Shown here piece after piece: positions 1-59,123 of a stretch of 64,000 nucleotides of DNA (its first letter is position 1; each line of letters opens with the position of its first letter). Source of the DNA: Tubulanus polymorphus (Eukaryota > Animalia > Nemertea); the NCBI RefSeq assembly GCF_964204645.1, contig NC_134025.1:18079101-18143100 (forward strand). Reading direction: 5' to 3'. The position numbers and the translations under genes were made by a program. The notes below the pieces were generated by a model. It saw nothing but the letters and a program-made list of their open reading frames with translations, was not told the DNA's origin and searched no databases.

Positions 1-554
1 ATTAATTATTGAAAATTCGAACAACGTTGTAAACCTTAACAATGGTTTTTCACCCCATAATAAACTTATATCAAAATTCCTCTGTAAACTGGTTAAACTC
101 AACACTTGATTTCCCCTTTGATTATTTGTTATTTGTTCTCTCATCAATTTCGTCTCTGACTTAACTTGTATTCACCTTTGTTTTAATTTAAGTGCCCTCT
201 AGTTTGTCTTTCTTTTTAATACTGACTTTAAGTTTCATTTATATTTATACTCACTATTGTTGTTTATAATTACCCCTTAGTTTGCTTCCCTTTAATCTAT
301 TTTAGCGTGTAACTGTTTCTACGTTAATTTTCCTTTAGTTTGTATCATCTCTGATTACTTGAATTATTCTCTTTGTCTCTGGATTGTATATATATCTAAT
401 AATTTCTGTAGTATCTCATTATTCCTGAAGATGACTATAAGGATATAGTCGAAACGTTGAAATAAACTACTATCTCGAAGTTTCATTTTCGGACTTTTTA
501 TTATCATTGTGGGATTCTCTCCTCATCGCGTCAACACGGATATAGTGTTCTACC
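1..554 (+). mobile_element. Penelope-like retroelement 3' end (GIY-YIG C-terminal tail plus pLTR), inserted in the viral integrase gene
   Basis: 2-109 reads LIIENSNNVVNLNNGFSPHNKL..., resembling the tail of the Penelope ORF at 49491-49745. Hammerhead core at 425-458. TGTGGGATT motif shared with the other two Penelope remnants. Confidence 0.8.
421..463 (+). ncRNA. Minimal type I hammerhead ribozyme (Penelope pLTR)
   Basis: CTGAAGA (425-431), stem II GACTATA/TATAGTC, GAAAC (451-455), then palindromic AACGTT. Confidence 0.8.
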
Positions 555-593
555 AATCGTGAAAATCAACCAACATATCAAATCCACAAGAAA

Positions 594-1502
594 ATGGATA
601 AAACTTATTTAACAAGAAAAGTTATGGTTTCATATATCGATCAACAATGGCAAGCAGATTTAATTGACAGGAAGAATTTAGAAGAACACAACAAAGGATA
701 TTTCTGGATATTAAATGTTATACATGTATTCAGTAGATACGCATGGTCAATTCCAATCAAAAATAAAACTGGTATAGAAGTTACAAATGCTTTTAAAAAT
801 ATATTTAAAGAAGCTATTCCAGGTAAGATACAATTTGATGAAGGTAAGGAATTTTATAATAAACATTTTAAAAAACTATTATCTGATAACGATGTAGAGT
901 ATTTTTCAACACACTCAGATAAAAAAGCATCTATTATAGAAAGAATTAATAAAACATTGAAAACTAGAATGTGGAAATATTTTACTGCTAATGAAACATA
1001 TAAATATATCGATGTGTTAGATGATTTAGTGAAAGGTTATAATAATTCAAAACATAGTTCTATAAATATGAAACCTATACAAGCTAGAAAAGAAGATAAT
1101 TCAGTTTGGAATAATTTATATGAAGCATTTGTTACACATGATTTTGGAGAACCTAAATTTAAAATAGGGCAACATGTTAGAATATCTAAATATAGAAAAA
1201 CCTTTTATAAAGGTTATACCCCTTATTTTACTGAAGAAATATTCAAGATTAAAAAGATAATATTAACTAAACCTTTTGTTTATAAATTAGAAGATTTAAA
1301 AGTTGAAGAAATATTAGGTTATTTCTATGAACAAGAATTATCACTTGTACCAAATCCAGATGAAATAGAATACAAAATAGAAAAAGTATTGAAAACAAAA
1401 ACTCTTAAAGGAAAAAAGTATTCTTTGGTGAAATATAAAGGGTATGATGATAAATTTAATGAATGGAATTTATCTAGTAAAATTAAAAGAATAAATGAAT
1501 AA
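594..1502 (+). CDS. Retroviral-like (rve) integrase with C-terminal chromodomain, Polinton type; true N-terminus disrupted
   Basis: DDE triad in WQADLID / IQFDEGKEF / IIERINKTLK. Chromodomain YKIEKVLKTK...LVKYKGYDDKFNEW. In-frame upstream NQPTYQIHKK matches copy D. Confidence 0.92.
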   Translation: MDKTYLTRKVMVSYIDQQWQADLIDRKNLEEHNKGYFWILNVIHVFSRYAWSIPIKNKTGIEVTNAFKNIFKEAIPGKIQFDEGKEFYNKHFKKLLSDNDVEYFSTHSDKKASIIERINKTLKTRMWKYFTANETYKYIDVLDDLVKGYNNSKHSSINMKPIQARKEDNSVWNNLYEAFVTHDFGEPKFKIGQHVRISKYRKTFYKGYTPYFTEEIFKIKKIILTKPFVYKLEDLKVEEILGYFYEQELSLVPNPDEIEYKIEKVLKTKTLKGKKYSLVKYKGYDDKFNEWNLSSKIKRINE

Positions 1503-2093
1503 AGATTTATTTATATTTGAACCGCATAATATGTTAGTTTCCGGGGTAACCAACTGTGATAAAACACATTTCATATTAGACTTGTTAGAAACTATTTATA
1601 AGAATCATTTTGATAATATAATATTATTCTGTCCTACTTATGAAATGAATAAAACATATAATAGAGATAAAGTTAAGATAAAAAAGTTTATTATATTAGA
1701 TCCTAAAACAGTAAAAGAAAATTTAGATAATTGTATTAAAATAGCAATTGATATTTATAAAGGATCAAATACATAATTCATTATAGATGATTGTGCAAAT
1801 TTACATGAGAGAAAGAGAGTTGTGTTATCTCGCTTTCTCTGGGAGACATTTTGGGATAACAACATGGGTTTTAAATCAAAAATATAATTCAATTGTTAAA
1901 GACTTTAGGGAGACTAAGATTTCTAGTTTTATTTTATAACAAAGATAGAAAATCTATGCAACAATGATTGGAAGAAAATCAAATTATACCTACTGAATTA
2001 CATGATGAATATATGAATAAATTAAAGAATAATAAAGGTTCAAAATTACTTCTGAGGCTTCAATTTCCATATGAATATAAATCTATAAAATAA
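1495..2093 (+). pseudogene. A32/FtsK-like DNA packaging ATPase (disrupted)
   Basis: Walker A GVTNCDKT (G>D). After the stop at 1776 come Walker B FIIDD and, frameshifted, SGRHFGITTWVLNQKY. Confidence 0.85.
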
Positions 2094-2149
2094 TGTATTT
2101 TAAGTATTAATGTATTAGATATGTTAATTAAATAATTTAAATTATTTCA

Positions 2150-2782
2150 AATTAATACCCCCTTATGTCTTTATGGTCTTTAGTAGTTTTAGTACTTTAA
2201 GTACATAAAGAATAACTCTATTTTATCAGTACTGAATAAAATTATTTTTAAAACTACTAAACTACTAAAGACAATAAAGACAATAGAGACATAACAAACA
2301 CATAGATTTATCATTGCTGAATCAAATATAAATAATAAATCTGTGAGATAAATAAATCTTTGATATAATTATTGAATCAAATATATATAATATATCTATG
2401 TGTGTTTGTTGTGTCTTTATTAACTTTAGTACTTTTAGTACATAAAGAATATATCTTTATTTTATTAGTACTTAGAAAAATAAATATATAAATAATTTTC
2501 ATATATGATAAATCTATGATATTTATCATTATTGAAACAGTAATATATAATAAATATGTGTGATAAATAAATATTATTATTGAAACAGTAATATATAAAA
2601 TCTATCAGATGAATAAATATAATTATTGAAACAGTGATATATATATATATATATATTTATGTATTTATCTCTGTAGTAGTTTAGTAGTTCTATTATATTT
2701 TTGAAACTACTTATAATATAAAGATTTATTCTTTATGTACTAAAAGTACTAAAGACAATAAAGACATAAGGGGTATTATATT
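2150..2782. repeat. AT-rich non-coding region with inverted and direct ~55-bp repeats between the convergent viral gene blocks
   Basis: TAATACCCCCTTATGTCTTTA...AGTACATAAAGAATAA (2153-2216) is the reverse complement of 2726-2779. Partial copies near 2250-2295 and 2410-2452. ATTATTGAAACAGT repeats at 2528-2635. Confidence 0.75.
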
Positions 2783-2793
2783 CATATTTTAGA

Positions 2794-3920
2794 TTACTTT
2801 TCTGATTCTAATTCTAAAAACAATTTGAGCCATGCATCTTTCAATTCCTGTGATTTTCTATTACCTTCAACTTCACCTAATAGTTTGGTGTGATAACCAT
2901 CAACAGCATTCAAATTCTTAGCATACAATTCATAAGTTAAATAAATATATTGCTTTAATTTGTCTTCACTTATATTTTTATATTTATTTTTTGCATCATT
3001 TCTTATTTCATTTATAACATCCTGTGAAAAATCTTCATAACTGTAATATTGAATTATTTCATCAAAGTTATCACTTTTATCATCATAATTATCATTAGCA
3101 GCAACTTTTGTCAATTATATTAAAAAATCTGTATTTTTAAATTTTATGAAATAATGCATACCTGAATAATCACCCGGATATGTTTTTATACGTGTTCAAT
3201 CAGTTTTTAGACTTGTTTTGGATTATTTCTTACATAATCGATAAAATTTGATCTATATAATTTCCTATGATTATTATTTTCGATATCAAAAAATACACTT
3301 GGTGCTCTATAAAGACGTTTTGAATCAATAGCTTTTATTGTATGTTCAATAGAATTATCATGTTTAATTTTATCTTTAGGTAAGACAACAACATTACACT
3401 TTTCACATATATTTCTCTCTACATTATCAAAATGTATTTGAGTTAATTTATGCTTTGAAAAAATACTACGACTTATATATTTATCACATTCTTCACAATA
3501 TTTATCATTATTATTATCTTCTTTAGCATTATCATTATCAATTTCACTATCATTATTAAATTCATTTATAGTCTTGTTCTTATTTTTCTTATACTTGAGT
3601 GAATTAAGATGAGTTGCCCAATTCGTATAACTTTTATACTGTTTACATACGTAACAATATTTTTCATTTGTCTTTTTGGTTTTGATATCAGGTTCAATCT
3701 TATCATCATTCGATGTAGAAGGTATAAAATTATCTTCTATTTTAGATTCAATATTATCTTCTTTTTTTATTTCAATATTATCTTCTATTTTACTTATTCT
3801 ATATTTTAATTGATTAAAGTATTCTCCAAAATACTTACTGTATTCATCATGAGGTATTATATCATATATATCTGGTATCATTTCACTTGGAGTTTGTATT
3901 TCATATATTCCTCCTTCCAT
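2794..3920 (-). pseudogene. Viral zinc-finger protein (three CxxC...H...H fingers), probably one frameshifted gene
   Basis: CYVCKQY..THLNS, CEECDKY..KHKLTQIH and CEKCNVV..KHDNSIEH in ORF 3207-3920. Coding-like sequence bridges to ORF 2794-3114. Confidence 0.65.
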
Positions 3921-3944
3921 TTATTATAAAAAGTTTCATTAAAA

Positions 3945-5203
3945 TTAAAATTCTAATACATAGTACACACTATTTAATTGAGAATTTACGATATTTAATT
4001 GCGCGTCAGATATAATATAAACGTGCATTTTAAAATTTAAGCTTCCTTTTTTCTTTTTCATGAATAATTGTATTCCATCTTTAGTGTTCTGTAGTTTTTT
4101 CCCAGAACCATGTAATGAATTATCCTCCGTTGTTCTAAAATCTAACCATAGTGCATATTTATTACCGGTATAAAAATCAATTTGATTAATATTACAATTT
4201 TCAGATGATTTTACTTTTTCATTCATAAAATGTTTTCTAATTCCTGGCCATTGATCTATCATTCTCATTACTTGACAAAATATTTTATTTGCTATACCTT
4301 CGATAGTTATTTCTACTTTTGTTATTTCTGGATTATAATACTTATCAACCTGTATTGCACCATTAGAATATGTTGCAACGGTAAAAAATATTAATATACC
4401 TTTAATAGATCTTCTTGGGAAGTTAATATTCTCATTAATTATTTCATCATGTGCATTAATAGTTACAGTTTTAAATTTATCAATATAATCATATAATAAT
4501 GAAAATCCTTGATTGTATTGAGTTTGAATTATACTTGAAATATTTTTATGTTACTGTATCATATTCTAAACATATATTCGATAATTTATAACTCATATCT
4601 TTATTAACGCTAGATATTACAATTTCATTAACTGGAGCAAATGTTATCTCAAATATAACGTCTTCTTGAATTGCGTATTTATATAAAGGTGCATTATTAT
4701 TTATCAATTCAAAGTCTAATGGGATTTTATATTTGCTTCCATATATACTTTTTATCAATTTATCTAGAGCATTAGTTAATATTGCATTATGTGCTTCTGA
4801 TCTTAATTTATTTTGGTTTTCTGATTCGATGCCTTGAAATATCATATTATTTCTATTTTCTTTAGTTAATCATAAATCTTTATAATGCATAAATAAATTA
4901 TAATCATCTAATGAGTTAAACTGTTTCTGGACCAATCTTTATAGTTAATTTTTTAATCAAATATCTTCCAACATTATCAACAACATAATTATTACTATTA
5001 CCGGTTACTTTTATATCAGCTGATAGATAAATACTATTTGGAACATAAAAAGTATTTTGTGTTAATCGAGGGATTCTAACATATAAAGTTTCATCAGGAT
5101 TAATATAAGAAGGATTATGAGTAATTATATGATGAGATCTTTCTGCTTTAATAGCATTAGATATTCTAGGATTCTTAGAAGGATTTATATAACTCCCACT
5201 CAT
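3945..5203 (-). pseudogene. Putative major capsid protein (double jelly-roll/hexon-like), frameshifted
   Basis: Three collinear ORF pieces total ~420 codons, beta-rich (HHIITHNPSYINPDETLYVRIPRL; NICLEYDTV; KYALWLDFRTTEDNSLHGSG). Best-conserved gene against copy D. Fold is inferred from size, context and recollection of similar animal Polinton proteins. Confidence 0.7.
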
Positions 5204-5223
5204 TTATTTAACAAAAAAATTAA

Positions 5224-6928
5224 TTATTTATTTTTTATCATATTCACTAACCCAAAAATAATTGCACTTACAACTTTAATTAAAAATAAAATAATATGTT
5301 CAGCAGCAAAGTTAAGAATATTCCCAGCAGATTTCAATATAAAACCAACAATCGATGCAATAACTGCACGTAAAGCTGCAGCAGATTTTTGAGATAGTTC
5401 CCATAGATATTTTGCTAATTTTTTAAACCATCCGTAACTTTATCTTGTATAGAATTATTATTGGGAGGTTTATCAGGTTTATTGGGAGTAGGTGTAGATT
5501 TTAATGAATTTGATATGGCTAAACCTATTGTTGTGAATACCATAGTTACAGCTGTTAGAATTGAAAGAATTGTTATTCCTTCTAATTTAAATAATAATTT
5601 TATTCTATCTTTTAATGATATTTCAGAATTTGGTTTTATCGACAAATCTTTAAAAATAACTTTTAATATTTTAATATGATTAAGGTCAAATGATTTTAAT
5701 AATATATCTCTTTCCTTTTCCTGAAATTTTTATTATATTTTAAATCATCTATTTCTTTTTCTAAAGCTAACTTTCTGCATTCATAATCAACTTCATCAAT
5801 TACTTGAAGATTTTTATTTAATTCTAATTGTTTTAATTCTTCATTTGCATGAATTAATTCTTTTTCTAACATGGTTATTTTAGAAAATCTCATCTTAATA
5901 TTAGCAATTTCACCAGCTGATTCTTGCATACCTTTAATTTCTCTACGTGCTTGTTCAGGAAATGCTTCTAATTCGTCATCAGTTAAATCAAGTAATCCTT
6001 TTTCTAGTAAAGATTGCATTCGATTTATTCCAGTTTCAGCACCAGATGTATCTAACATACTATTCATCTGTTCTTCTGTATCACTTAATCTATCAATTTG
6101 TTTTTCTAATACTAATTGTAATTGACTTGAAACATAATCAATTTGTTGAATATCTCTTCTCGATGTTTCTGGTGTTGAAGATCTTAATTTATCTAATCGA
6201 TCTCCATACTCTTCCATTTCAGGATCATAAGTAGGATTTGGATTTGGTTTTTTAAATGGTGAATAATTGTTAATATCAATATTCGGAATTGGTTCTTTTT
6301 CATTTAACCTTTCGAGTACATTCCATATAATTCTGAGAAATTCTAAACCACCTTTTGAACGTTCAATCGTAGATCTTGCTTAATTTCAGGTTCATACATA
6401 TTTTCTTGTTCCATTCTAGATCATTTAATTGTTACAGTTTTCCTATTTAATTCCAGATTATAATACCACGCATCATTTTTAAATTCTAAATTATTCGTGA
6501 AAAATGGGTCATCTTTTAGAATTTGTATTACAATATCTTCTGAATCAACTTTATCTATTACATCTTTTGGTAATAATTCGTTTACAACTGTATCTGTTAT
6601 TCTAGTTTTCATAAAATATAATTCTTTTTTTAAATCAGGAAATTCTTCTTGTTGTAATTGTAATTGATTCATAAATCTTTTTTTTTCTGATCTAGTTGAA
6701 ATTCTACCACTTGCTTCAGCCGCTTTATATCTTTCTAATTTTTCATGTAATTCATCATAAGAACCACTATTATTAGGATCTTAAGTAGAATATACATCAT
6801 CACCATCACCTAAATAAGAATTGTATGCTGATCCATCATCATTATCAATATTAGTTTCATTAAAATCAGGTTGTGGTTCATCACTGTGGGGCGTCACCAA
6901 AAGTATCCATTGGAATATCTTCTTCCAT
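5224..6928 (-). pseudogene. Large viral protein: acidic N-terminus, coiled coil, C-terminal transmembrane helices
   Basis: ORF pieces 6421-6672, 5696-6217 and 5415-5645. TM segments ITILSILTAVTMVFTTIGLAI and IILFLIKVVSAIIFGLV. Homologues in copies C and D. Confidence 0.65.
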
Positions 6929-6943
6929 TTATGTAATAAAAAA

Positions 6944-8298
6944 TTAAAATTTGAAATATAATATTCCTCCTATAACAATTCCTATACAAGTAATAGCTAA
7001 TTCAGTATTTTTATGGGATTTATTATCATTGTTAGTTTTAGTTATATCATGTTGAATATTATCAGTTTTTATATCACCGTGTGGGTACCGTACGGCACCA
7101 TTTTCTGTAGTATTGTAATCTTTTATTTTAGAATCATTATTTAATTTGATATTCTTAGTTTAAGTTTCAGTTGATTGAATATGTTTTTTTATTTTTTTCA
7201 CCTTCCATCAATTTTGGAGCAGTAATAATCTTTTTATTTATATCATTCAATCCAAATGAATTATTTATTGTTGAAGTCTTAATTAAATTATTTTAACCAA
7301 TTATATTTCCCATCTTTAATATTAAATCATTAGAAATAATAAATAGATTAGGGCCTATACAATAATTTAATCTAATATGTGATTTATCTAAATAATTTTG
7401 ATATCTTACAATGTTTTCTGGAATCGATCTATTTTTATCATTATGAATGGAATCTTCAAATAATACTTTGAATTGTTTCTGTGCATCAAATGAAGTGTTA
7501 TCATTTCCAACTATTGGTGATCTTGTTTCACCTTGCGCACCTAGAATACATATCAAATAAGTTCTAATTGATTGATTTATTCTTTGTATACCTGATTTAG
7601 TAAAACCTTCACTATTTTCTAAAATGAAATTAATCCAACCATTATTATTTTGTTGTTATATATTATTATAATATTTTGCTAATTCATTCCAATTTAGTGT
7701 TCTTATATCTGTATTTGTCATTATTTTTCATAATTCTTTAGTATATAATATTCCTAATCCACCCATTTTACCAATTTTTGCTCTAAAATCATTATTTAAA
7801 TTAATATTAAATTCATTACATATTTTATAAAACTTAGAAAAATTAATATTATTATTTAGTTCATTAAAGTATTTTGAACCTGGTAAAGGGCACTCTAATT
7901 CATTCAATATTAATTTTTATTTGAAAATATGTATGAAATCTAAAAAGTGATAACATCAATGGTAAACTTGGTTTGTTTAAATGATCATTCCAACTTATAC
8001 CACACCCTGTTGTTGCGCAATTAACAGCAAAATTTAATTGGTTCTGCCAATACTTCATATTAGATTTTAATAACCATTGTTTTGCCTCATTTAAATTTTT
8101 AAAATTAATTACGTAAACATTGAATATATTTTCCATCTTTACATTAAAATTATTACTTTCAGTAACATAAATACCTAAATTAATTAATGAATTTAAAACT
8201 TCATTTCTATATGAAATATCTTTATTTAAATCTATTGCAGGAATATTATATTTAATTGATTTATAATATTGAAAAGCTTTTGGAAAACTATCTACCAT
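6944..8298 (-). pseudogene. Conserved viral protein with C-terminal membrane anchor
   Basis: ORF pieces 7900-8298 (YWQNQLNFAVNCATTGCG) and 7293-7556. Ends ...ELAITCIGIVIGGILYFKF. Homologue at 60570-61795. Confidence 0.65.
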
Positions 8299-8313
8299 TT
8301 ATATAATTAAAAA

Positions 8314-8768
8314 ATTAATAATTTATTAATTATTTTAATAATTTATTTTGTTCTTCAACTGTTATATTACCATTTAAACTTATTATATAATCTAGTGTGT
8401 TTTTTAATTAATTAATTTCTTTTATATTAGTTTTATATTTTATTTATTTTACTAATTTTTTCTTTATTACTTTTTATATTTAATTTTGAACTAATACCAG
8501 TTAAAACACTTGATGATAATCCTAGCACACCACTTGATATGGCTAAAGGTGTTAATGGACTGAATATTGCTAGAAATGTTATTACAGCACTAATTGTAAC
8601 TGAACCACTTATAATAAAATAATATATAATTTTACTTTTTAAATATTTTTTCTTTTTAACTTTTAAATCATTTTCAAATTCTAATATTTGTTTTTCTAAA
8701 TATGTTTTTAATTTAGTTTTATTTATATCATGGGGAATAATATCAATATTATCAACTTTATCATCCAT
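8314..8768 (-). pseudogene. Viral two-TM protein with coiled-coil flanks
   Basis: IIYYFIISGSVTISAVITFLAIFSPLTPLAISSGVLGLSSSVLTGI hydrophobic hairpin. Homologue in copy D. Confidence 0.65.
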
Positions 8769-9630
8769 TTATTTAGCAAAAAAAATTACTACTTAGTAAG
8801 TTTATATGCTACAAATATAACAATAACAGTTCCACCTAAAATCCAAATTATTTCATATTTATGTTGTTCTTTACTTGGGGTATGATAATCTGATAATTTA
8901 GGTTTGTATAGATGTAATTTTTCTTTATTGGTTACCGCGTTATATAAACTCATTGCATCATCAACTGATTGAAAATCTGGCGCTAGTCCAGTATACGACA
9001 TTATAGTGCGTGTGTAGAGTTACACTGCGTTCTTCGGTCAGTGTTAACAGCGTTTGACAGTTGACAGTTGACAGTTAGAGTAAACGACGAGACGAGCTGG
9101 CAACCTGTCAACCATGACTGCAGTGTGGCTTTTATTTCATCTGCCTTTTGCTGATATTTTTCTTCATTGTAGATTTTCATTGTTTATCATATATGCATTG
9201 TGTAAGAATCATAAGGTTGCGGATGACATAGGCCTATATCTGTTTAATATTTCGAAAATACCAAAAAAGGTACATGAATAAAATTGCAAATCTATTTCCG
9301 GGGCACATTCGCATGCACTTCAGCAATTTCACTGTCAAAACAGGCAAGTTCATGCGTGAATAAGCGTCCCCATATTTACCTATTCACCTAAGTTCATGGT
9401 GCATTGAGCGTTACGTTATTTCGGTATAAAAACGAAATATCAACAACCAATCTGTCAGCACAGATAGCAGCTGATTCAAGCATGAATTCTATCTAACCTC
9501 AAAAAGCGTCGGTGATAATTGACTTCGTAAAGGATGTCCTACCATGTCTGCGACAAGGCATTTATTCTTTAAGCCAGCTCCAGAAACACTTTCGCCAGGG
9601 GCAACCGCTTAACGCCGAAATGCCGAATCG

Positions 9631-9631
<1 letters not shown>

Positions 9632-9725
<94 letters not shown>
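9632..9725. repeat. (TA)n microsatellite
   Basis: Uninterrupted TA run of about 94 bp. Confidence 0.98.
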
Positions 9726-9728
<3 letters not shown>

Positions 9729-10059
9729 TTAACTAATAAAAGTAACAGTAAAATCATTATATTGGGTCTAAGGCTAGGGTTTCGATAGGGTTAGTGTCAA
9801 AAGGGTGAGAAGAGGGTCCGGAGGGTTCCGTTTTACCCCTAGGGATAGGATTAGGGTAAGGTGAGGTACTATAGATAGTTAAAACATTCACATGGTTGTC
9901 AGCGAGCTCGTTGGTCTTGTGGTATGACGCTGCGCTCGTAATCGTATCGGTGGGGTTTCGATCGAATTGCAGATGGCCACGACGTTTACTTTTTAATGAT
10001 ATTTCTTTCTCCTCTAATGCAACCAGACAAGTCGTTCATCTTGGGTTATCATAGGGAGG

Positions 10060-10315
10060 ATGTGTAGGGTGTCACATGTCAAACGTCCTGTGGAGTCATC
10101 ACCTAACTGCTGTGTAGGGTGTCTACTTGTCAACCGTCCTGTGCAGTCATCACCTAACTGTTGCGTAGGGTGTCTACCTGTCAACCGCCCTGTGCAGTCA
10201 TCACCTAACTGTTGTGTAGGGTGTCTACCTGTCAACCGTCCTGTGCATTCATCACCTAACTGTTATGTAGGGTGTCATCTGTCAGCCGTCTTGTGGAGTC
10301 GTCACCCTAGTATGT
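10060..10315. repeat. 51-bp minisatellite, about 5 copies
   Basis: Unit GTAGGGTGTCTACCTGTCAACCGTCCTGTGCAGTCATCACCTAACTGTTGT. Confidence 0.9.
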
Positions 10316-10749
10316 AAGATATCGCATGTCATCAGCTGTAGAATATGGATTCCCAATCAACGATCTATTTTCATGGAAATTCTTTTAGTTCCATATTACT
10401 ACGCGTTTATGTTTCAGCTTGCGCATTAATTCCCCGATTTACTTCAAAAGTATCTCTACACGTTGCACTATAATGTCGTATATCGGACTTGGGCCGAAAA
10501 TCTCTATGTGAAATCTTCTGATCATATAATTCTTTATTGATGTAATCCATATAGTTTTGCCTCTTTTCTCTATATTCTTCTGCTGCTTTATTGTATTTCT
10601 CTAATGCTAAGTTATGTCTTTTTTGTTCTGATAATGAACTATTTTTATCAATATGCTTAAACAAATACCCACCACCAGTAAATGCTAAAGCGTTAACAAT
10701 TGCCGATCCTATAATCGTTATAATTGCAGATGCCATTTATTTAGTAAAA

Positions 10750-10981
10750 ATATTATACATTTATATAGGAGGAATATATTTTTGTTTTCCCAAATAATCA
10801 ATAGCTAAATTAGATAAAGTAACTGCTAATGTTAATTTTAAAATATCATTTATATCAAATCTATCAACATTAACACTTCCCATTTTAAATACTTTTTTAA
10901 AAGCATTGAATAACCAACAGTTCCAACTGATAATAATGCTCCATTATATAATCCAGTTATTATCCACTTATTATCACTCAT
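10750..10981 (-). pseudogene. Small viral two-TM protein (MSDNKWIITGLY...)
   Basis: Frameshifted homologue of the intact ORF 40804-41031. Confidence 0.7.
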
Positions 10982-11152
10982 TTATTTATCAAAAAAATTA
11001 CTATCTTCAAAATATTTTGTTATCTTAGTTATAATGAGGACTCTACGATCGACTGTGGCAAGTCAGTATCACTAGATGGCGCTCAGAATAGTCAGACAGG
11101 ATCACCTGAATGGATGTATGTTGATTAACGCGGTTTTTCGACTATCATGACT

Positions 11153-13155: not shown

Positions 13156-13447
13156 CATGATTCATTTCACTTCATCGAACAATACACAATACACAATTGC
13201 CATTCAACAACAATAAAAAGGGAGCCGAGTTTATTGTCACCTAGTTCCTTTCTTGTTGCTTATGTCATTGTTCAAAATGACAATACATGTACTTTAGCCT
13301 ATATCAAACGTTTTATTGAATTAAAGCCTAAAATTACCTTCAAGTGAAGTAGATAAGTAATCGACTTGGTCAAAATGCTCTCCACAAACAGTTGACCAAC
13401 GTGAAGGCGACCAATTATGTTCCCCTCGCTTCACTGCCTGTGTCCAT

Positions 13448-14129
13448 TTATTTCTCAAAATTATTAAATTGAGGAATGCATGGTTTGAAATCACATTCTG
13501 TTAAATTATAATTTATTAACGTTCCAAATTCTTTAACATTCTTCAATGGTAAAATGTTTAATAAACCAGAATTACAAGTTATATCTTTAGTTGCTTCGAA
13601 TGTTTGTGTAGGATCGATTAAATTGCAATAAATATAAAAGTGTGTTAAAGGTATTAAGTTTGGTGTAGCTTCAATATTTGTAAAAGATTTATCTGGAAGA
13701 ATTCCTAACAGTTTAGCTGTAGGTTTTTTTACCATAAATTTATGTTTTTCAATATCAGCCAACCTTATCTTTATTTTGTTAGAACTCTCAATTTTTAAAA
13801 ATCTAATATTAAACCCGGAATTATTACCTGACTTGTGCCATGCTTTTAATTTCTTGTGCCAATGTATCTAAATTATACAATCCTGGTTTTAAATATATAT
13901 AGGCCCATTCATTCTTATTTTTATTAAAAATTAAAAAGGTTAACAGTTTTAAATGTTCAACAGTTTTATTCGATATATTGTAAAATGAGTTACATAAACT
14001 TATATTTACTAATTATAAATCTACACAATTCTTAAATTCTCTATCTAATTGTACTAGTAAATTATGTGATTTATAATTTGTAAGTCTTCTTGAATCAACA
14101 AATATTCTATATTCTTTTAATTCTACCAT
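13448..14129 (-). pseudogene. Putative minor capsid protein (penton, single jelly-roll)
   Basis: MVELKEYRIFVDS..NLLVQLDREF; LKPGLYN; AKLLGI; FYIYCNLID; GLLNILP. Motif order is typical of Polinton/virophage pentons. Confidence 0.65.
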
Positions 14130-14139
14130 TTATTTTACA

Positions 14140-14488
14140 TATTTTCTTATTCGAAATCTATTTCATGGTGCCCTTTTTCATTCTTACCCTTATAAATGAA
14201 ATAGAAATCTCCAGAATATAATTCTTCTAAATCTTCACTTGATAATCTATGAAATCTATCTGGTAAATATGTTCTGAATTTAAATGTATTTCATTTTTAT
14301 CCTTCATATTCTAAGTGGATAACTAATTTATCTCCATATTTGTTAGTAACTGTATCAATATTTGTAATTAGATATTTCTTATGAATTGTTAATTCTGTTA
14401 ACTTCTTAAATTTATAATCTACTGATTTGACATTTGAAGTATCTTTGATTCTATCTAAGAATTCACTGTGTTTTTGTTTACTCTCCAT
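14140..14488 (-). pseudogene. Small viral protein, possibly OB-fold ssDNA-binding
   Basis: KKLTELTIHKKYLITNIDTVTNKYGDKLVIHLE..FRTYLPDRF. Homologue at 42140-42486. Function is inference. Confidence 0.45.
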
Positions 14489-14547
14489 TTTAATAACATA
14501 TTTTTTATTAAAATTGATATTAGAAGTTATTAGATGAATATTTTAAG

Positions 14548-14669
14548 AGTAATAGGGAATAAGTTGTTTCAAGTCAAAGGTTGAAGGGTCGGAAAATAAA
14601 TTCGAGTGTGCGAGAATTTATTTTTCGACCTTTCGACCTTTGGCTTGAAACAACTTATTCCATATTACT
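14548..14669. repeat. Terminal hairpin of virus copy A
   Basis: Two 56-nt arms with 51/56 complementarity and a 10-nt loop GAGTGTGCGA. Bounded by AGTAAT...ATTACT. Confidence 0.92.
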
Positions 14670-18745: not shown

Positions 18746-20002
18746 CTCTCCGGCAATGAAAATTTCTCCTTTTAGTCCATCGATCGGGAAAACCGGCTTA
18801 CTATTTATAGTGATAGTGAAGAGATTCTGCGATTCCGTCATTCTGCGATATGACAACACCGGGAAAGTGCATACAGCTAGATCTGACATTTAATCTATGA
18901 TTTATGAAATTGGCGATCCAAAACTGAAAGTGTTATCAAGTTTGAAATGGTTAACATTCTAGTGCGAGTTCAAAAACATCCAATATCAGATATCAGCAGA
19001 GAAAGGTTCAAACATAATTCAGTACTGATACCAGGAACGGTGAAATTGTTCTAAACATTCTATAGCTGCTGTTGTTACACATGAATTATTGATTGAATGA
19101 TTATTATTTTCGATATATACTCCCTACTTCAGTATAAGACACTCTTAAGACGCCAAAAACTTGTCGTATTCTGAACGGACAGTTTAGAAAGAAGACAGAT
19201 TCCTGACGAATATAATAAAGTGGGCTATTGTAAATGCGTCTAATGTCTTGGGGGTGCCATCTTTAAAAGCATCGAAACCCTAGCAAACCTCAATACTTCG
19301 GGAAGGTGGATCTCTGCCGAAGCGAAATCGTAACAAATGCATTGGATTAACGCATGCTGGCTTAAGTTTAGTTTTATTCGATTCGATATTAATTCATGAA
19401 CTAATAATTGCAATCACTTATATGCCCTCGTACTGGTTCATTGACTAAAGTAAGAAGATTACATCGAAAATGAACCGAACATCTTTTCACAGGAGTCATG
19501 TAATGCATAGGCAAAATGAATTACCCCGAACATGAACTACTGTAGAAAGTTGTGTTTTCCAAGATTTTGATTTGCCTAACTTATTTAGCAGGCAAAAATG
19601 AATTATTCGTTCATTTCCAAATTGTTTGTATTCCTGGTGTTATCTTGAATCTTTGGGTAAAGACCAGTCGATGGTCCGACGAGACAGCTTTTGCTAAAAA
19701 GCAGGAAATCTTACTCTTGAGTTAATTCTTTGGTTAAGTGTTGGTCTGTCGAATCCTGAGCGGAAATATTTACTAATACTATCGAATAAGTGTCAAATAG
19801 GATGTGAGGTAGGGTGTCAGAGTTAACATTGACAGGTGCATAAATAATTTCATTGAATTTTCATATCTAGTGCACAGGTGTAGGAAGATATTTCATACGT
19901 TGTTTTTGATCCAATTTGACAAGATCCGAACATCCGACGATTGTAGACAGTTTTCAAGGCACACTGAGCGACTGGAAGATTGAATTCAACTACAAAATTT
20001 AC

Positions 20003-20248: not shown

Positions 20249-20389
20249 CTGGAAGGAAAAACAATAAACGTACAGAACATTGAGCATTACGTGTCCCATA
20301 AAATTTTGTAGAGTATGGTGTCTTTGTGTGTGGTTTCCTACTGATTCTACTACCTTTAAGGCAAAGTGGGACATTGATGGAATATTTCT

Positions 20390-37116: not shown

Positions 37117-37170
37117 TCTATTAGATATTTAAATCTTTTAACTCAATTCAATAATTATAATGTAGAATTG

Positions 37171-38005: not shown

Positions 38006-40803
38006 TACGACAAGCCTACCATGCATATGTACTAGAAACACAACTTTTTCCCTCTCGTCGGCCCTACAGTGATGTTACTATAACTGGTGCCATTATAATA
38101 TGGATAGGATTTGGTCAGGACTAGCCTAAAGTCTAATTCAGTCTATGTACTAATTCACTCCATAGGCCTATTTTTAAAACAATACAGTGAAATATTCACA
38201 CGCAGAAAGGCTAATTGATTTGAGCCATGTGATTAAGTTTGGCCAGGCCTTCTCTGACCTGCTGACATTAATAGTCAAACCAAAACGTTCATGTGGTCAC
38301 GGCTTGTATTACCAGAAATCATTGTAGGCCTGTACATTTTGCTGTTCGTAGGTTTGGTATACCGATTTCTCCATTCTTGACTGATAAGTGTACGGTACAG
38401 CTGTACGCATTATACAATTGTTCCAATGGGAATAGGGCCTATTGATTGGGCTTATTATTTCCTGCTTTAGAATACTGAAATAAGCCCAACGTTCATTCAA
38501 ATATCCAACATCGGTGAAAGTTTGATTACTGTATAGGCCTACATGTACTGTAGGTTTTCATGTTGTATGAATATTTTGCAGTTCAAATGGGTATGATGCT
38601 GATTCCAATGTAGAATGCATGCAGTTAGATGGTTAAGGACAGTCAACACCAAGATATCTCTCTTCGACCGAAGTTGCACCGTAGAAGATCTGATTCTTTC
38701 AACTCAAGGAAAGTGATTCAACACGATCGACATAACACTGGAATAGGTTTGCAGTAACTAACGGTTCATTTCATTTAGTCCTATGTACTTTTTAGCCAAT
38801 TTGGATTTGATTGTAATTGAAACTCTGGAACAAAAGACGAAAAAACAAGTTATGCTTGATTCTCATGTTCAAATTTAATTCAAATTCAAATTTATTTTAT
38901 TACATCATATTTACAAAGCATATCATTGGTTCATACAGTAATAAAAATTAGGACAGAACAAATATTATTACAGAATTTCCAAAAAGGCAATAAATTTGTA
39001 TAGCTAAATGAACATTATTTTTCTAATAACTCAGATCAAGAATGACTTTCCCGTTTATTAGGAAACACACGCAACTAGTGGAATAGGTTTGATTTACACA
39101 CATGGTGCAGGTATCAATTGTTTATCACTATAGAATTTGTAATCCATAAAAGCCAAAATCAACATCAGCTGGAAACCCAGACCAAATCAATTCATAATTT
39201 ATTGATTGAATCTACACTACTATATATGTATTTATTCAAATATTTCAATAAAAACATTAACTTCTTAAATCTATTCTAAATCATAATACGTTCTTATCTG
39301 TGAATTCACTCAATCTATCGACTCAGCAGGTGCTTAAGATGAGTTCTTAATAGGACAGATCCATTTTTAAGCATGGTGATAATACAGTATCATGATGTTT
39401 GAATGCCAAAATAAATGCCTGGTCAAATAAATTAATATTTGTTGATTGTACGTCCGCGTATGTTCGGTTTCAAAGCTGAATCATATTTGACGTTAACACA
39501 GTGTTTGCATATTAGGTTCGAATCTGTCAATGCATTTTATTTTATGTATCGGTATTTCAATTTACTACAATTCCCATCATTCTGAATGGCCTTGCAGAAA
39601 ACCCGTCATCGCTGCTTGGCAGCTATATTTTTAATTCAATTTCTTCGATTACTTTACAATCTCTAATTTTAATTGTACAAATTCGTTATTAGATTTAAAT
39701 AATTCATCTTCTAAAGTGTTAATTTTATGAACTCTAATCATTTTATTGTGCACAATTTTATCAGCTTCATTTCTTATACTAATAATTTCTCTAATTGCTT
39801 TATCAGAAAATATATTAAATCTTCTAATTCTTGATCTGTTGCATCCACTAATCCATTCGGTAAAATGTTTTCAGTTTGAACTCTTCTTGAATTAAGTTTA
39901 CTAGTTTTGGAAGTTATATTCAGTTTAGATGTTGTTTCTGTTTCTAAATTATTATTGATTGTTTCAAATAATTCATTAAATCTGTGTTTGAATACTCTTT
40001 TATTTTGATTTATTTCTGTGTCGGTAAGATTTTCTATTTCATTACTATTACTCATTCTTTTAATTCTAGATGGTTCTAAATTACTCAAAGTTGATTCTGC
40101 TAATATTGTATTTTGATTTTTATAAGACATATTAATATAATAATCATCTTTCAAATAATAATAATATTCATCTAAAAATTTTAATTCTCTTACTAAATGT
40201 CTGGCGCCTCTATCATTTATATTGTATCTGATTATTTATATTGTAAATGATAAATATATTCATTATATTCTAAATTTTGTTTTACTAAATCTGGATTTTC
40301 ATTTTTAGGATTCATTCTCGATTCAGTTCTTCTATCAAACTCGTCTGTTGATGGATCTTTAGAACCGCTATCTGCTAAATTAGAATTATATGTTGTATCA
40401 TTATCATTATCAATATAAGTATCAGCAGACAAATAATCATCATTATTAGTATTGACATAATTATTATTTCCCATGTCTTGCATTTCATAATCTTCTCCAC
40501 CTTCTACATCCATTTATATCTTATAAAAATCAAAATTTCGACTGATTGAAAATCTCGGTGTGAAATTTTCTGATTATATAATTCTTTATTAATATAATCC
40601 ATATAGTTTTGTCTTTTTTCTTTATATTCTTCTGCTGCTTTATTATATTTTTCTAATGCTAAGTTATGTCTTTTTTGTTCTGATAATGAACCATTTTTAT
40701 CAATATGCTTAAATAAATAACCACCACCTGTAAATGCTAAAGCGTTGACAATTGCCGATCCTATAATGGTTATAATTGCAGATGCCATTTATTTAGTAAA
40801 AAA

Positions 40804-41031
40804 TTACGCGTTAATAGGAGGAATATATTTTTGTTTTTCTGAATAATCAATTGTTAAATAAGATAAAGTTACTGCTAACGTTAATTTTAAAATATCATTT
40901 ATATCAAATCTATCAACATTAATATTTCCAATTTTAAAAACTTTCTTCAATAACATTGTATAACCAACAGTTCCAACTGATAGTAATGCTCCATTATATA
41001 AACCAGTTATTATCCACTTATTATCACTCAT
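40804..41031 (-). CDS. Small viral two-TM protein, intact copy
   Basis: 75-aa ORF with two hydrophobic segments. Homologues in A and D. Confidence 0.7.
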   Translation of the reverse strand: MSDNKWIITGLYNGALLSVGTVGYTMLLKKVFKIGNINVDRFDINDILKLTLAVTLSYLTIDYSEKQKYIPPINA

Positions 41032-42567
41032 TTATTTATCAAAAAATCACCTTCTTCAAAATATTTAGTTATCTTAGTCATAATTATTTCAACATTTATA
41101 ATATTATTTGTTTCATTTTTATATATTTCAGTTATAATCTTTTTAATATCATCAATGATTAAATCTTTATCTAAATCATAAAATCTCGAAGAATTTCTAA
41201 TTTTTATCGGTAAATTTTTCTACATTAAAAGTTTCTTTATGTATTGTTGTTTCATAATCAAAAGATGTTTCATGAAAAAAATGCAATATCTTTAATATGT
41301 GTTATTACATCATTAATATCAAATTTCATTTCTTTCTAACGTTTAAAATCAAATCCAAAACATATACTCGGTCCTATCTTATAACTAATTCGTAAATAAC
41401 AGGGAAATTATTTAAATCAATTAAGTAATTATAATGATTTTTTATTTCTAAATTAAAATTATAAAATTGTGGAATACAAGGTTTGAAATCACATTCAGCT
41501 AAATTATAATTTATTTGTGTACCGAATTGTTTAACATTTTTAATGGTAAAATATTCGATAAACTAGAATTACAAATTGTATCTTTATTTGCTTCAAATAT
41601 TTTTGTAGGATCAATTAAATTGCAATAAATATAAAAGTGTGTAAAAGGTATTATATTTGATCTACCTATCTATCTATGTTTCCTGTAACAATATCTGGTT
41701 TAATTCCTAACAATTTAGCTATTGGTTTTTTTATAATAAAAGAATGTTCATTTTCATCATCTTACTTTATTTTTATTCTATTAGTGCTATCACTTTTCAT
41801 AAATCTAATTAAAAATTTATCATCACTTCTAAATTTCAACCGTGCTTTTCTATTAATTTCTTGCTCGTATGTTTCTCAATTATATAATCCTGGTCTTAGA
41901 TATAAAGTAAACCATTGGTTTTTATTTCTAATAAAAATCAAAAAAGGACTTTCTTCAATAGTTTTATTTGAAATATTACAAAAAGAATTACATTAACTAA
42001 TATTTACTAATTTTAAATCAACGCAATTTTTAAATTCTCTATCTAATTGTACTAGTAAATTATGAGATTTATAATTTGTAAGTTTTCTAGAATCATCAAT
42101 TATTCTATATTCTTTTAATTCTACCATTTATTTTACATATTTTTTCATTCGAAATCTATATCATGACATCCTTTTTCATTCGTACCTTTGTATATGAAAT
42201 AGAAATCACTAGAATATAATTCTTCAATATCTTCACTAGATAATCTATGAAATCTATCTGGTAAATATGTTCTGAATTTATATTTATTTCCTTTTAATCC
42301 TTCATATTCTAAGTGAATAACTAATTTATTACCATATCTATCTATTAGTAATTGTTTAAATGTGAGTAATTAAATATTTCTCATATAATGTTGATTCTGT
42401 TAACTTTTTGAATTTGTGATCTACAGATTTGACATTTGTAGTATCTTTGATTCTATTTAAGAATTCACTATGTATTTGTTTACATTTATTATACATATTT
42501 CTATTAAAATTGATTTCATTAATATAATCTTCATTTATATAATGTTCATAAATATGAATATTATTAG

Positions 42568-42718
42568 AGTAATAGGATAAGTCTTGTTTCAGATTAAAGG
42601 TCGAAAGGTTGAGTGAGTAGAAAATAAAAATAAATTCGAGCGTGTGAGAAATTATTTTTCATTTTTTATGAGCTCGACCTTTCGCCCTCTGGTATGAAAC
42701 AAGACTTATCCTATTACT
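42568..42718. repeat. Terminal hairpin of virus copy C
   Basis: 151 nt. Outer 24 nt perfectly complementary (AGTAATAGGATAAGTCTTGTTTCA / TGAAACAAGACTTATCCTATTACT). Loop GAGCGTGTGA. Confidence 0.92.
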
Positions 42719-50487: not shown

Positions 50488-52132
50488 GTACGATAAGCCT
50501 ACCATGCCTACGGCTACGTACTACAAACACAACTTTTTCGCTCTCGTCGGCCCTACACTGATGTAACTATAACTGGTACTGTTATCACATGGATAGGATT
50601 TGATTAGAACTAGCCCAAAGTCTAATTCAGTCTATGCACTATTCATTCCATATCATTAAAACAATACACTGGAGTACACAGGCAGAAAGGCTAATTGATT
50701 TGACCCATGTGATTAGATTTAACTAGGCCTTCTCTGACCTGCTGACATTAATAGTCAAACATAGGTCCAAAGCGTTCATGTGGTCACGGCTTGTATACCA
50801 GAATCATTGTAGGCCTGAACATTTAGCTGTACATAGGTTTGGTATACCGATTTCTCCAATCTTGACTGATAAGTGTACGGTACAGCTTTTCGCATTATAC
50901 AATTGAACCAATAGGAATAGGGCCTATTGATTGGACTTAACATTTCCTGCTTTAGAATACTGAAATAAGCCTAACGTTCATTCAAATATCCAAAAATCGG
51001 CGAAAGTTTAATTACTGTGTACATGTATTGTAGGTTTTCATGTTGTGTGAATATTTTGCAGTTCACGTGAGTATGATGCTGATTCCAATGTCAAACGCAT
51101 GAAGTTAGATGGTCAAGGACAGTCAACACCAAGATATCACTCTTCGACCGATGTTGCACCATAGAAGATCCGATTCTTTCAACTCAATCAAAGTGATTCA
51201 ACACGATCGACATAACACTGGAATAGGTTTGCTGTGACTAACAGTTCATTTCATTTAGTCCTATGTACTTTTAGCCAATTTGGATTTGATTGTTATTGAA
51301 ACTCTGGAACTGTTAACGAGAGAGAAGTAAGACAAGTGGAAAAACACAAGTCATTCTTGATTCTCATATTCAAATCGAATTCAAATCCAAATTTATTTTA
51401 TTACATCATATTTTCAAAGCATATCATTGGTTCATGCGGTAATAAAAATTAGGACAGAACAAATATTATAATAGAATTTTCAAAAAGGTATAGAATTTCT
51501 ATAACTAAATGAACATTATTTTTCTAATAACTAAGATCAAGAGTGACTCTCCCGTTTATTAGGAAACACACGCAACTATTGGAATAGGTTTGATATTAAC
51601 ACACATGTTGCGGGTATAAATTGTTTATCAGTATAGAATTTGTAAAATATAAAAGCCGAAATCAACATCGGTCGAGACCCAGACCAAATCAATTCATAAT
51701 ATATTGATTGGATCTACACTACAATACATGTATTTATTCAAATATTTCAATAAAAAGATTGACTTCTTAAATCTATTTCAAATCATAATACGTTCTTATC
51801 TGTAGATTTACTCAATCTATTGACTCAGTAGGTGCTTAAGACGAGTTCTTAATAGGACAGATCCAGTTTTAGCGTGGTGATAATACAGGGTCGTGATGTT
51901 TGAATGCCAAAATAAATGCCTGGTCGAATAAATTCATATTTGTTGATTGTATGTCCACGTATGTTCGGATTCACAGCTGTATCACATTTGACGTTTACAC
52001 AGTGGTTGCAAATTAGGTTCGAATCTGTTAATGCATTATATTCTATGTATCAGTATTTCAATTTACTAAATTCCCATCATCCTAGTGAATGGCTTTGCAG
52101 AAAACCCGTCATCGCTGCTTTGCAGCTATATT
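50488..52132 (+). mobile_element. Family I HINE body and 3' tail, paralogous to 38006-39629
   Basis: Collinear similarity over 1.6 kb. Tail GCAGAAAACCCGTCATCGCTGCTTTGCAGCTATATTT. Confidence 0.8.
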
Positions 52133-52952
52133 TATACTTAGAAATTCTAACATTTTGACTAACTTTAAATTTAGGTTCACCAAAATCCTCTATAAAAATA
52201 AATTATTCCAAACAATTTCAGCATTTTCAGGTTTTCTAGCATCAATAGGTTTCATTCCAATAGAAGAATGACAAGAATTGTTATAACCTTCTATCAATTT
52301 TGGTAAAATATCAATCCACTTATAAGTATTATTTGCTGTAAAATATTTTGACACTCTTGTTCTTAATGTTCTTTAGATTGTTCAACAACTGCTGCTTTTT
52401 TAACCGATTTTGTTGAAAAATATTTAATATTATGAAAATCTAAGAGACTATGAACAAATGAGTTATCAAATTCTTTTCCATCATCAAATTGTATTTTTTT
52501 CTGGTTTTAGTCTTCCACCCAAAAGAAACTTTCTTAAAATTAACGATGTTTGTACAGCGTCTTTTCTGTAAAGTGGGAAGCTCCATACATAACGACTAAA
52601 AATATCAATTATATTTAATATCCACCAATAATCATTATTATCTTTTTTAAGATTTTTCATATCAATCAAATCTCCCTGCCACTGTTGATCTTCATAACTT
52701 ACCATATTTTTACGAGTCTCTAGTTTATTTTCTAACAATTTTTTTGTGTGTTGTATATGTTGGTTGTTCTAACATAAAATCAATTATATCTTTTTATTTT
52801 ATTAAATTTTGTTGGATTATCTTATTTAATTTATCCTGTTTTACTTGGTACCATATATTTTTTGCAGAAGAATAAGCAACCGAACTCTCAGGGTTATAAT
52901 ATAAATTTCTTTAATATTGTTCTTTAGTATTCGGAGTTTTTTTATCCCCCAT
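52133..52952 (-). pseudogene. Polinton-type integrase, copy D (frameshifted, 3' end cut)
   Basis: YYNPESSVAYSS N-terminus; WQGDLIDM; IIDIFSRYVW; DDGKEF; KAAVVE. Confidence 0.85.
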
Positions 52953-52966
52953 TTATATATCGTTAA

Positions 52967-57842: not shown

Positions 57843-57856
57843 TTAACTTTATATTC

Positions 57857-59100
57857 TTAATATTGAATACTATCTAATTGAGAATTTATAATATTCAATT
57901 GCGCGTCAGATATGAAATAAATATGCATTTTATAATTTAAACCTTTTTCATGAATAATTGTATACCATCTTTTGTATTTTGTAATTTCTTCCCAGAACCA
58001 TGTAATAAATTATCCTCTGTTGTTCTAAAATCTAACCATCATGCAAATTTATTACCGGTATAATAATCAATTTGATTAATATTGCAATCTGCAGATGATT
58101 TTATTTTCTCATTCATAAAATCTTTTTTTTAATTTCTATCCATTGATCTATCATTCTCATTCCCTGATATAAAATATTTTATTTGCTAAACCTTCAATTG
58201 TTATTTCCACTTTTGATATTTCAGGATTATAATAATTATCAACTTTTTTGCACCATAAGAAAATGTTGCAATGGTAAAAAAGTATTAATATACCTTTGAT
58301 AGATCTTCTTGGGAAGTTAATATTATCAGTAATTATTACATCATTTGCATTAATAGTTACAGTTTTAAATTTATCAATATAATCATATAATAATGAAAAT
58401 CCTTGATTGTATTGAGTTTGAATTGTGCTCGCAATATTTTCATCAGTTAATGTGTCTTATTCTAAACATATATTCGATAATTTATAACCCATATCTTTTA
58501 CAACGCTGGATGATACAATTTCATTAACAGGGGCAAATGTTATTTCGAATATAATATCTTCTTGTATAGCATATTTATATAAAGGTGCATTATTATTTAT
58601 CATTTCGAAGTCTAATGGAATTTTATGTTTGCTTCCATAAATCTTTTTTATTAAATTATCTGCAGCATTACTTACTATTGCGTCATTAGCCTCAGATCTT
58701 TATTAATTTTGGTTTTTTTGATTGGATGCCTTAAAATATGATATTATTTCTATTTTCTTTTGTTAACCATAAATCATTATAATGCATAAATACATTATAA
58801 TCATCTAATGAAAAAGCTGTTTCTGGTCCACTCTTTACAACTTATTTTTTAATTAAATATCTTCCAACATTATCTACGACATAATTATTATCATGACCAG
58901 TTACTTTTATATCAGCTGATACATGAATACTATGTGGAACATAAAAAGTATTTTGTGGTAATCGAGGAATTCTAACATATAAAGTTTCATCAGGATTAGT
59001 AAGTATTAGATGGATTATGAGTAATTATATGATAAGATCTTTCTGCTTTAATTGCATTAGATATTCTAGAATTCTTAGAAGGATTTATATAACTCCCACT
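57857..59100 (-). pseudogene. Putative major capsid protein, copy D (heavily frameshifted)
   Basis: Collinear nucleotide similarity to 3960-5203. Confidence 0.75.
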
Positions 59101-59123
59101 AATTTATTAAGAAATAAAATTAC

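Follow-up and report, generated by a model that had tools for sequence, protein, structure and literature searches.

A poxvirus-type late promoter motif at the gene starts of a decayed Polinton-like virus in the nemertean Tubulanus polymorphus

A stretch of 64,000 nucleotides (nt) of the Tubulanus polymorphus genome (NCBI RefSeq assembly GCF_964204645.1, contig NC_134025.1, positions 18,079,101 to 18,143,100; hereafter the window) carries decayed chromosomal copies of a Polinton-like virus (PLV). Its gene starts bear a T run, a spacer of about 6 nt and TAAATG across the start codon, an arrangement typical of poxvirus late promoters. The motif is inherited and confined to one capsid branch of the element's relatives. 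Judged by sequence, it appears to be shared with a second, unrelated PLV lineage that has poxvirus-associated members. The element lineage is probably a virophage-like parasite that depends for its transcription on the RNA polymerase of another virus, a poxvirus-type helper.

Sharing of a helper's promoter is known for protist virophages. No report of such sharing with poxviruses, or of poxvirus promoters in Polintons or PLVs, was found in the literature searched, most subscription papers and preprint supplements being outside its reach. The word 'promoter' was not found in the passages searched of PMC11131425, PMC8502044 and bioRxiv 10.64898/2026.06.19.733378. The finding addresses an unsettled issue, the autonomy of animal Polintons and PLVs as opposed to their parasitism on large DNA viruses, and a promoter signature offers a sequence-only route to assigning helpers. 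If true, the proposal would widen virophage biology beyond protists and mimiviruses to include animals and poxviruses, would supply a mechanism for the entomopoxvirus-associated PLVs reported in 2024 and would point to poxvirus-type viruses in hosts in which none are known.

Motif sites in the window

The window was searched with the pattern TTTTTN{4,8}TAAATG. Fifteen matches were obtained, all on the minus strand; they reproduced exactly the 15 coordinates of the original prediction, which had placed a poxvirus late promoter ahead of nearly every gene of the element, and the sequences quoted there were correct when checked against the window. Whole-window shuffles gave a mean of 3.4 matches (maximum 10), and 15 matches were reached in 0 of 100. 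The enrichment over an AT-matched shuffled background, proposed as a check, was found: when the AT-rich element segments were shuffled alone (20,925 bases, 23% GC), 0.63 matches were expected on average (maximum 5, n = 300). The interval 3918..11000 contained 7 matches against a shuffle mean of 0.2 (maximum 3, n = 500). TAAATG as such was counted 94 times in the window, and a long frame is missing behind most of these. The principal starts are listed below.

3918..3932, minus strand: T5-N4-TAAATG, start of a zinc-finger-like open reading frame (ORF) at 3207-3920 that resembles L002 1748-3043
5201..5219, minus strand: T7-N6-TAAATG, start of the major capsid gene (motif search, homology)
6926..6943, minus strand: T6-N6-TAAATG, start of a gene of the ~485-aa family (coiled-coil-like, hydrophobic C-terminus)
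8296..8314, minus strand: T6-N7-TAAATG, start of a ~442-aa conserved core gene
8766..8784, minus strand: T8-N6-TAAATG, start of the gene for a ~144-aa hydrophobic protein
10734..10750, minus strand: T5-N6-TAAATG, start of the gene for a ~139-aa hydrophobic protein, which is split by a ~1.5-kb insertion and continues at ~8790-8977
10979..10997, minus strand: T7-N6-TAAATG, start of the gene for a ~75-aa hydrophobic protein
1492..1497, plus strand: TAAATG with an A-rich upstream, ATPase start overlapping the integrase end
14127..14132, minus strand: TAAATG with an upstream A run, start of the probable minor capsid gene

Self-comparison of the window reduced the 15 sites to 8 gene families, because the outlying sites are paralogous repeats in other copies: 40788 and 63761 repeat 10736, 41031 repeats 10981, 40513 and 60548 repeat 6928, 61795 repeats 8298 and 63320 repeats 8768. 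The recurrences outside the main copy are thus real sites, as had been claimed, but they are not independent; 7 of the 8 are paralogous and only 35736 adds a gene. Some TAAATG starts that have no T5 run had been missed: that of the ATPase (1495, plus strand), those at 14129 and 42127, which belong to the probable minor capsid gene, and one at 52952. A single surviving start, at 14488, lacks TAAATG, and that of the integrase has been lost by deletion. Stop-to-ATG gaps measure 15-24 nt wherever the upstream gene survives. These gaps had been said to leave no room for an RNA polymerase II (Pol II) promoter; this argument is weak and was dropped as evidence, because such promoters can sit within the body of the upstream gene.

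Distribution among relatives and comparison with poxviruses

A metagenome scan returned 125 relatives, of which the best 80 were retained for comparisons. The clade set consisted of 16 loci chosen after inspection of their starts (capsid identity of at least 52%, plus L066, added for its motif); L002 was left out as a duplicate of L001. TAAATG was present at 61 of the 71 complete gene starts of the clade set, and at 30/34 starts of its nine loci of 30-44% GC. At out-of-frame ATGs inside the same genes, TAA stood ahead in 43 of 898 cases. Outgroup loci gave 1/44 starts when AT-rich (13 loci, <40% GC) and 3/320 when GC-rich (51 loci, shadow frames included). Restriction to the core families gave 46/56 for the clade, 0/36 for the AT-rich outgroup and 3/322 for the GC-rich outgroup.

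A quick capsid tree was built independently of the motif; L018 and L050 were too short and were left out. Fourteen of the 15 labelled motif rows fell in one node (Shimodaira-Hasegawa-like approximate likelihood ratio test 92), with no motif-less DNA locus inside. The 8 label changes of the tree were discounted, since rows known only as protein could not be given a label. L066 formed a long branch outside the motif node, with 36% capsid identity, yet all six of its listed complete non-capsid starts were TAAATG; a separate gain and an older origin are possible readings.

Just 2 of the 61 TAAATG starts had a TAA that closed an open frame lying upstream. A T run preceded 12/15 head-to-head starts and trailed 5/12 tail-to-tail ends. 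Packing and termination therefore do not account for the motif. Base -3 was T in 62/71 clade starts, against a purine in 38/44 starts of the AT-rich outgroup, and base +4 was G in 44/71 clade starts. In a second upstream class, TTTTAATAAAAAA replaces the T run about 9-12 nt ahead of the initiator (window 14490-14511 and 37745-37767; L001 2461, L003 565 and L005 2287). It is a candidate intermediate-type promoter.

A sister group (L015, L016, L026, L036, L038, L051 and L067) was without TAAATG. TATA lay at most 16 nt from the ATG in 23 of its 35 core genes and further upstream in 4/35, and the near-ATG TATA persisted even at 47-49% GC. This TATA resembles the late initiator of asfarviruses and possibly indicates an asfarvirus-type helper, a lead only, because the element clade itself scores 21/56 on the same test owing to its own ATATAAATG variant.

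In vaccinia virus, the late promoter has TAAAT followed by G across the start codon, a conserved T at -10 and a spacer of 5-7 bp, and intermediate poxvirus genes use an A-rich variant (PMC11980589, PMC5294985, PMC12917281). TAAATG has also been taken as the mark of a late gene, both for a fish poxvirus and for an entomopoxvirus (PMC4542343, PMC3061580). As a reference, 36 chordopoxvirus loci of 20 kb each were used, in which TAAATG was found at 362 of 768 ORF starts (263 distinct). T peaked at -10 (0.71) and A at -16 to -12 in these loci, compared with T at -10 (0.77) and -9 (0.82) and A at -15 to -13 in the element clade. The T-minus-A profiles of the two groups correlated at r = 0.59 over -20..-1 (best shifts -1 and 0), against r = 0.31 for a control set that was itself picked for T runs. 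The architecture attributed to the element by the original prediction was thus recovered as clade-specific, position-matched to real poxviruses and present at head-to-head starts. TAAAT(G) over the ATG, the 5-7 nt spacer, T at -10 and the A-rich intermediate variant are common to vaccinia and the element, which differs in being small, without detected transcription genes, and in its longer T runs and more A-rich initiator.

PLVs have been described from entomopoxvirus occlusion bodies (AHEV_PLV1/2, CBEV_PLV1 and Ca_PLV1; Barth et al., 2024, PMC11296320). These viruses were proposed as poxvirus hyperparasites, and one is integrated in a beetle chromosome (PMC11296320). The words 'promoter', 'motif' and 'transcription' are nowhere present in the main text of that paper. 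Locus L276 (IMGVR_UViG_3300031924_000064) was retrieved with a motif from the capsid of lineage 1 of these PLVs, and its major and minor capsid proteins begin like those of a metagenomic lineage-1 member in table S4 of PMC11296320. TAAATG was present at 6/12 of its starts, those of the capsid and ATPase genes included, against 3/196 control ATGs (p 7e-7). Four of the five matches to the lineage-1 capsid motif were unrelated and were set aside, and no contig was found with the lineage-2 capsid motif.

No sequence similarity was detected between the L276 capsid and the element capsid family, and the motif of the element family was not found in the supplement of PMC11296320. The element capsid was assigned to neither lineage 1 nor lineage 2; for lineage 2 the comparison consisted of visual inspection and a single motif search. 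The entomopoxvirus-associated PLVs resemble the element as small viruses with a double jelly-roll capsid and an A32 ATPase, and L276 shares its TAAATG starts. They differ in their unrelated capsid lineage and in having a protease and no rve integrase, whereas in the element rve is present and no protease was detected. Their link to poxviruses is physical, through the occlusion bodies.

Helper dependence and alternative explanations

The helper's RNA polymerase would transcribe the genes of the element lineage in the cytoplasm, from the T-run / ~6 nt / TAAATG starts. A purine at -3 is the main rule of animal translation. The helper polymerase would start inside TAAAT, slip and add a poly(A) leader, yielding AAAAUG(G) despite the T at -3; the slipped leader would thus supply the purine missing from the clade DNA. 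Slippage at TAAAT-type initiators adds such a leader in known systems (PMC6211774, PMC7163114). The A run at -15 to -11 that replaces the T run may mark an intermediate-like class. The rve integrase would place copies in the host germ line, and these would stay silent until a helper infects the cell. The simplest model is that of mavirus, which carries its helper's late promoter, while element types related to it have different motifs, taken as a sign of different helpers (PMC10945749, bioRxiv 2025.10.09.676808).

The copies in the window are dead and unable to make virus, and the motif survives in them as a relic of how the lineage lives. The inducible antiviral defence that had been suggested is unsupported for this locus, because every copy in the window is broken; it would need intact copies elsewhere. 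The proposed dependence on a helper's RNA polymerase is the most economical reading of the motif, but no helper gene or genome was found in the scans. Pfam searches of 44 + 20 proteins gave no match to a polymerase, TBP, TFIIB or poxvirus factor, and comparison with 20-kb central poxvirus segments revealed no poxvirus gene in the window. Among the loci examined, the longest contig of the clade measures 11.5 kb, and a close member of its cluster comes from a contig of 16.9 kb; these lengths would leave little room beyond PolB for a polymerase.

Several observations weigh against a poxvirus-type helper. The helper was not found in three scans of viral contigs, which yielded known chordopoxviruses or chance matches only: the motif scan returned 120 loci, mostly by chance (59/604 ORFs with TAAATG), and the two poxvirus-polymerase scans returned known chordopoxviruses and no entomopoxvirus, fish poxvirus or uncultured relative. 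The homologues of the deoxynucleoside kinases found in two clade members named no poxvirus. Among the loci examined there was no complete clade element, and several conserved ORFs were without assignment. The profile correlation was computed over 20 positions that are not independent of one another and from orthologous genes, and the control set already gave r = 0.31. T5 runs were found at 24/61 element starts against 21/263 poxvirus starts, and A at -1 at 0.82 against 0.38. L276 is a metagenomic relative, itself not shown alongside a poxvirus. Finally, yeast virus-like elements encode a polymerase of their own that also works with TAAAN initiators (PMC6211774), so that such an initiator does not single out Poxviridae.

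A helper of a different kind, either some other large DNA virus of the cytoplasm or a cytoplasmic linear element whose polymerase has the same TAAA(T) initiator, is rather unlikely. Both the T peak at -10/-9 and the way in which TAAAT runs into the ATG are matches to poxviruses in particular; asfarvirus uses TA/TATA and Cafeteria virus TCTA. When 80 AT-rich viral loci were picked by one motif match, none with at least 3 ORFs exceeded 4/9 TAAATG starts. Such a helper would nevertheless fit the poly(A) slippage at TAAAN in yeast virus-like elements (PMC6211774), the TAAAT contained in some ranavirus DNA polymerase promoters (PMC5294985) and the greater A-richness of the element initiator at -1/-3 relative to chordopoxviruses, and late promoters are known for only a minority of uncultured large DNA viruses. 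Autonomy in the nucleus is improbable; in this reading, a factor of the element's own would steer host Pol II to late promoters private to the element, their TAAATG having arisen by convergence. The element does encode an integrase, and so reaches the nucleus, and it has zinc-finger ORFs and unassigned core ORFs from which a factor might come. However, no TBP, TFIIB or polymerase match was found in the proteins scanned, a factor of the TATA type would act some 25-30 nt ahead of the start site and not on the ATG, and T at -3 is poor for a Pol II mRNA with a normal leader. Polyadenylation hexamers were hardly more frequent near stops (17/57) than in the background (141/701), a weak test in AT-rich DNA. 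The TAAATG of the unrelated, poxvirus-linked lineage also argues against a private promoter.

There is very little chance that the pattern arose as a by-product of AT richness, tight packing, translation context or an upstream T-rich terminator, and as a sole cause this is largely refuted. The elements are indeed 20-25% GC, the T run closely trails the upstream stop in the window, TTTTTNT lies within 40 nt upstream of 10/15 sites, and poly(T) terminators are known in African swine fever virus and in poxvirus early genes. The T run may in addition double as a terminator. The motif was nevertheless not reproduced by AT-matched shuffles, internal ATGs or AT-rich outgroups, it is retained in the GC-richer clade members (30/34), and the scarcity of TAA as an upstream stop (2/61) and the distribution of T runs (12/15 head-to-head against 5/12 tail-to-tail) do not fit a terminator.

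A poxvirus-type helper thus remains the preferred reading. A precedent is mavirus/EMALE04 with Cafeteria roenbergensis virus, an integrated rve/PolB-type element carrying its helper's late promoter (PMC10945749). That system differs in its protist host, its Mimiviridae helper and its TCTA motif, and in having a protease and a capsid of the virophage type; experiments demonstrated reactivation and protection there, whereas the present element is known from its sequence. The element does not classify with virophages (Virophaviricetes/Lavidaviridae): its 414-aa capsid has 8-10% identity to the mavirus and Sputnik structures, and no protease match was found. With Mavericks/Polintons (Polintoviricetes) and the PLVs of corals, hydrozoans and bivalves (PMC11161782, PMC11131425, bioRxiv 10.64898/2026.06.19.733378) it shares rve, the ATPase, a major and a probable minor capsid protein, an AG-starting terminus, endogenous copies and, in its relatives, pPolB. 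Unlike Mavericks/Polintons, it has no detected Ulp1/adenain protease and its capsid has no Pfam match. The yeast elements pGKL1/2 (PMC6211774), linear and with pPolB, likewise have a TAAAN initiator and form poly(A) leaders by slippage, as proposed for the element group, but encode their own polymerase, capping enzyme and helicase, which were not found in the element proteins scanned, and have no capsid.

As a more speculative extension, which we regard as doubtful, a widespread, animal-associated family of PLVs may be split by helper into a poxvirus-type branch and asfarvirus-like TATA sister branches. Poxvirus-type viruses of aquatic invertebrates would then await discovery, and intact germ-line copies could be inducible anti-poxvirus virophages, the first in an animal.

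Genes, copies and termini of the element

The identification as a PLV agreed with the double jelly-roll capsid, A32 ATPase and rve integrase that were found. At least three decayed copies of one PLV are present in the window, plus fragments. The main copy (444-14669) is interrupted by insertions at ~9000-10490 and 11035-13447, and its gene order matches that of metagenomic contig L003. All copies are broken by stops, frameshifts and insertions, which affect the capsid gene, the ATPase gene and most other genes of the structural region. The element segments have 20-25% GC; the flanks have ~36-41% GC and carry satellites, dispersed repeats and an EF-hand frame, and the types of repeat suggest an animal, probably an aquatic invertebrate. 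The features are as follows.

444..1502, plus strand: integrase of the rve type that carries a chromodomain and is missing its 5' end (Pfam: rve 2.5e-8 and Chromo 4e-5; 77% to the L005 integrase)
1495..2090, plus strand: A32-type packaging ATPase, three pieces (intact relative Pox_A32 4.6e-11)
2159..2773: very AT-rich non-coding stretch inside the element, with nested inverted repeats
3945..5203, minus strand: predicted double jelly-roll major capsid gene, three pieces (70-82% to intact relatives)
5224..6928, minus strand: ~485-aa family gene, fragmented
6944..8298, minus strand: ~442-aa core gene, fragmented (61-77% to L003)
13451..14129, minus strand: probable minor capsid gene, fragmented (47-51% to L003 565-1329)
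14150..14488, minus strand: small terminus-adjacent gene (34% to L003 125-469)
14548..14669: element terminus, AGTA-starting palindrome with 56-bp arms and a 10-nt loop
35100..38005, minus strand: fragment of a related copy with terminus-like sequence, AT-rich ORFs, a 24-bp tandem array and motif 35736
39625..42718, minus strand: second decayed copy with terminal palindrome 42568-42718 and motifs 40513, 40788, 41031 and 42127
52130..52960, minus strand: integrase fragment with a TAAATG start at 52952
57855..64000, minus strand: third decayed copy with motifs 60548, 61795, 63320 and 63761, split by host repeats

The capsid gene 3945-5203 had 925 relatives among 1588 candidates and no Pfam match. 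Its double jelly-roll fold is assigned through the predicted model of P0001, a natural intact relative (predicted local distance difference test, pLDDT, 85.8), which matched the capsids of an iridovirus, PBCV-1, mavirus and Sputnik with E values of 1e-16 to 1e-10 and 8-12% identity. The capsid of the third copy (57860-59100) has 84% DNA identity to that of the first. Capsid searches across viral contigs gave no match, and a scan of prokaryote genomes gave one fragment. Capsid relatives of the P0009 cluster (56% identity) are annotated on short contigs of several Bartonella drafts; they are probably host DNA carried along, and hint at a terrestrial arthropod branch.

In the 442-aa core protein (window 6944-8298; L003 2996-4324), Gln, Cys, His and Asn residues are invariant and the C-terminus forms a hydrophobic helix; its model (pLDDT 72, with a confident core) had no match in the viral fold library, and a PDB sequence search gave none. 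For the gene at 13451..14129, a minor capsid identity is presumed mostly from its motif pattern. A profile comparison of its family with the L276 minor capsid protein gave a weak match (E 0.01, probability 4%), and no match was found by PDB sequence search. The gene at 14150..14488 is, as a lead only, a candidate for a phi29-like single-strand binding protein, on the basis of a high-scoring Atlas lead to Phi29_Phage_SSB.

No PolB was found in the window. PolB is present in outgroup relatives L020 and L032, and a PolB-like fragment was assigned to clade member L006 by clustering only. No Pfam match to an Ulp1/adenain protease was obtained among the 44 proteins scanned, which included nearly all ORFs of the 11.5-kb L003 and came from incomplete elements only. 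Deoxynucleoside kinase genes were found in two clade members (L003 10340-10981 and L008 2895-3377) and are consistent with cytoplasmic replication.

A single type of terminus, bearing a palindrome, was found three times in the window. These AGTA-starting ends lie at 14548-14669, 42568-42718 and 37850-38005 and have arms of 56-69 bp and loops of 10-13 nt. Neither the other end of the element nor a duplicated target site was recognised. The AT-rich stretch 2159-2773, between the ATPase and the next ORF, contains inverted-repeat arms of 74 nt (88%) and a 46-bp tandem unit, and is longer than the corresponding gap in L001 and L005. In the AT-rich fragment of the related copy, a 24-bp unit is repeated 54 times (35861-37118). 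A fragment of a YqaJ-like recombinase/alkaline exonuclease lies at 12835-13152, within an insertion that splits the main copy. The EF-hand frame adjoins a 340-bp element fragment (19989-20387 and 20394-20737), and arrays of a 31-bp satellite (22649-24406, 25580-27198, 28373-29034 and 30293-30558) lie inside a tandem duplication of 2.8-2.9 kb.

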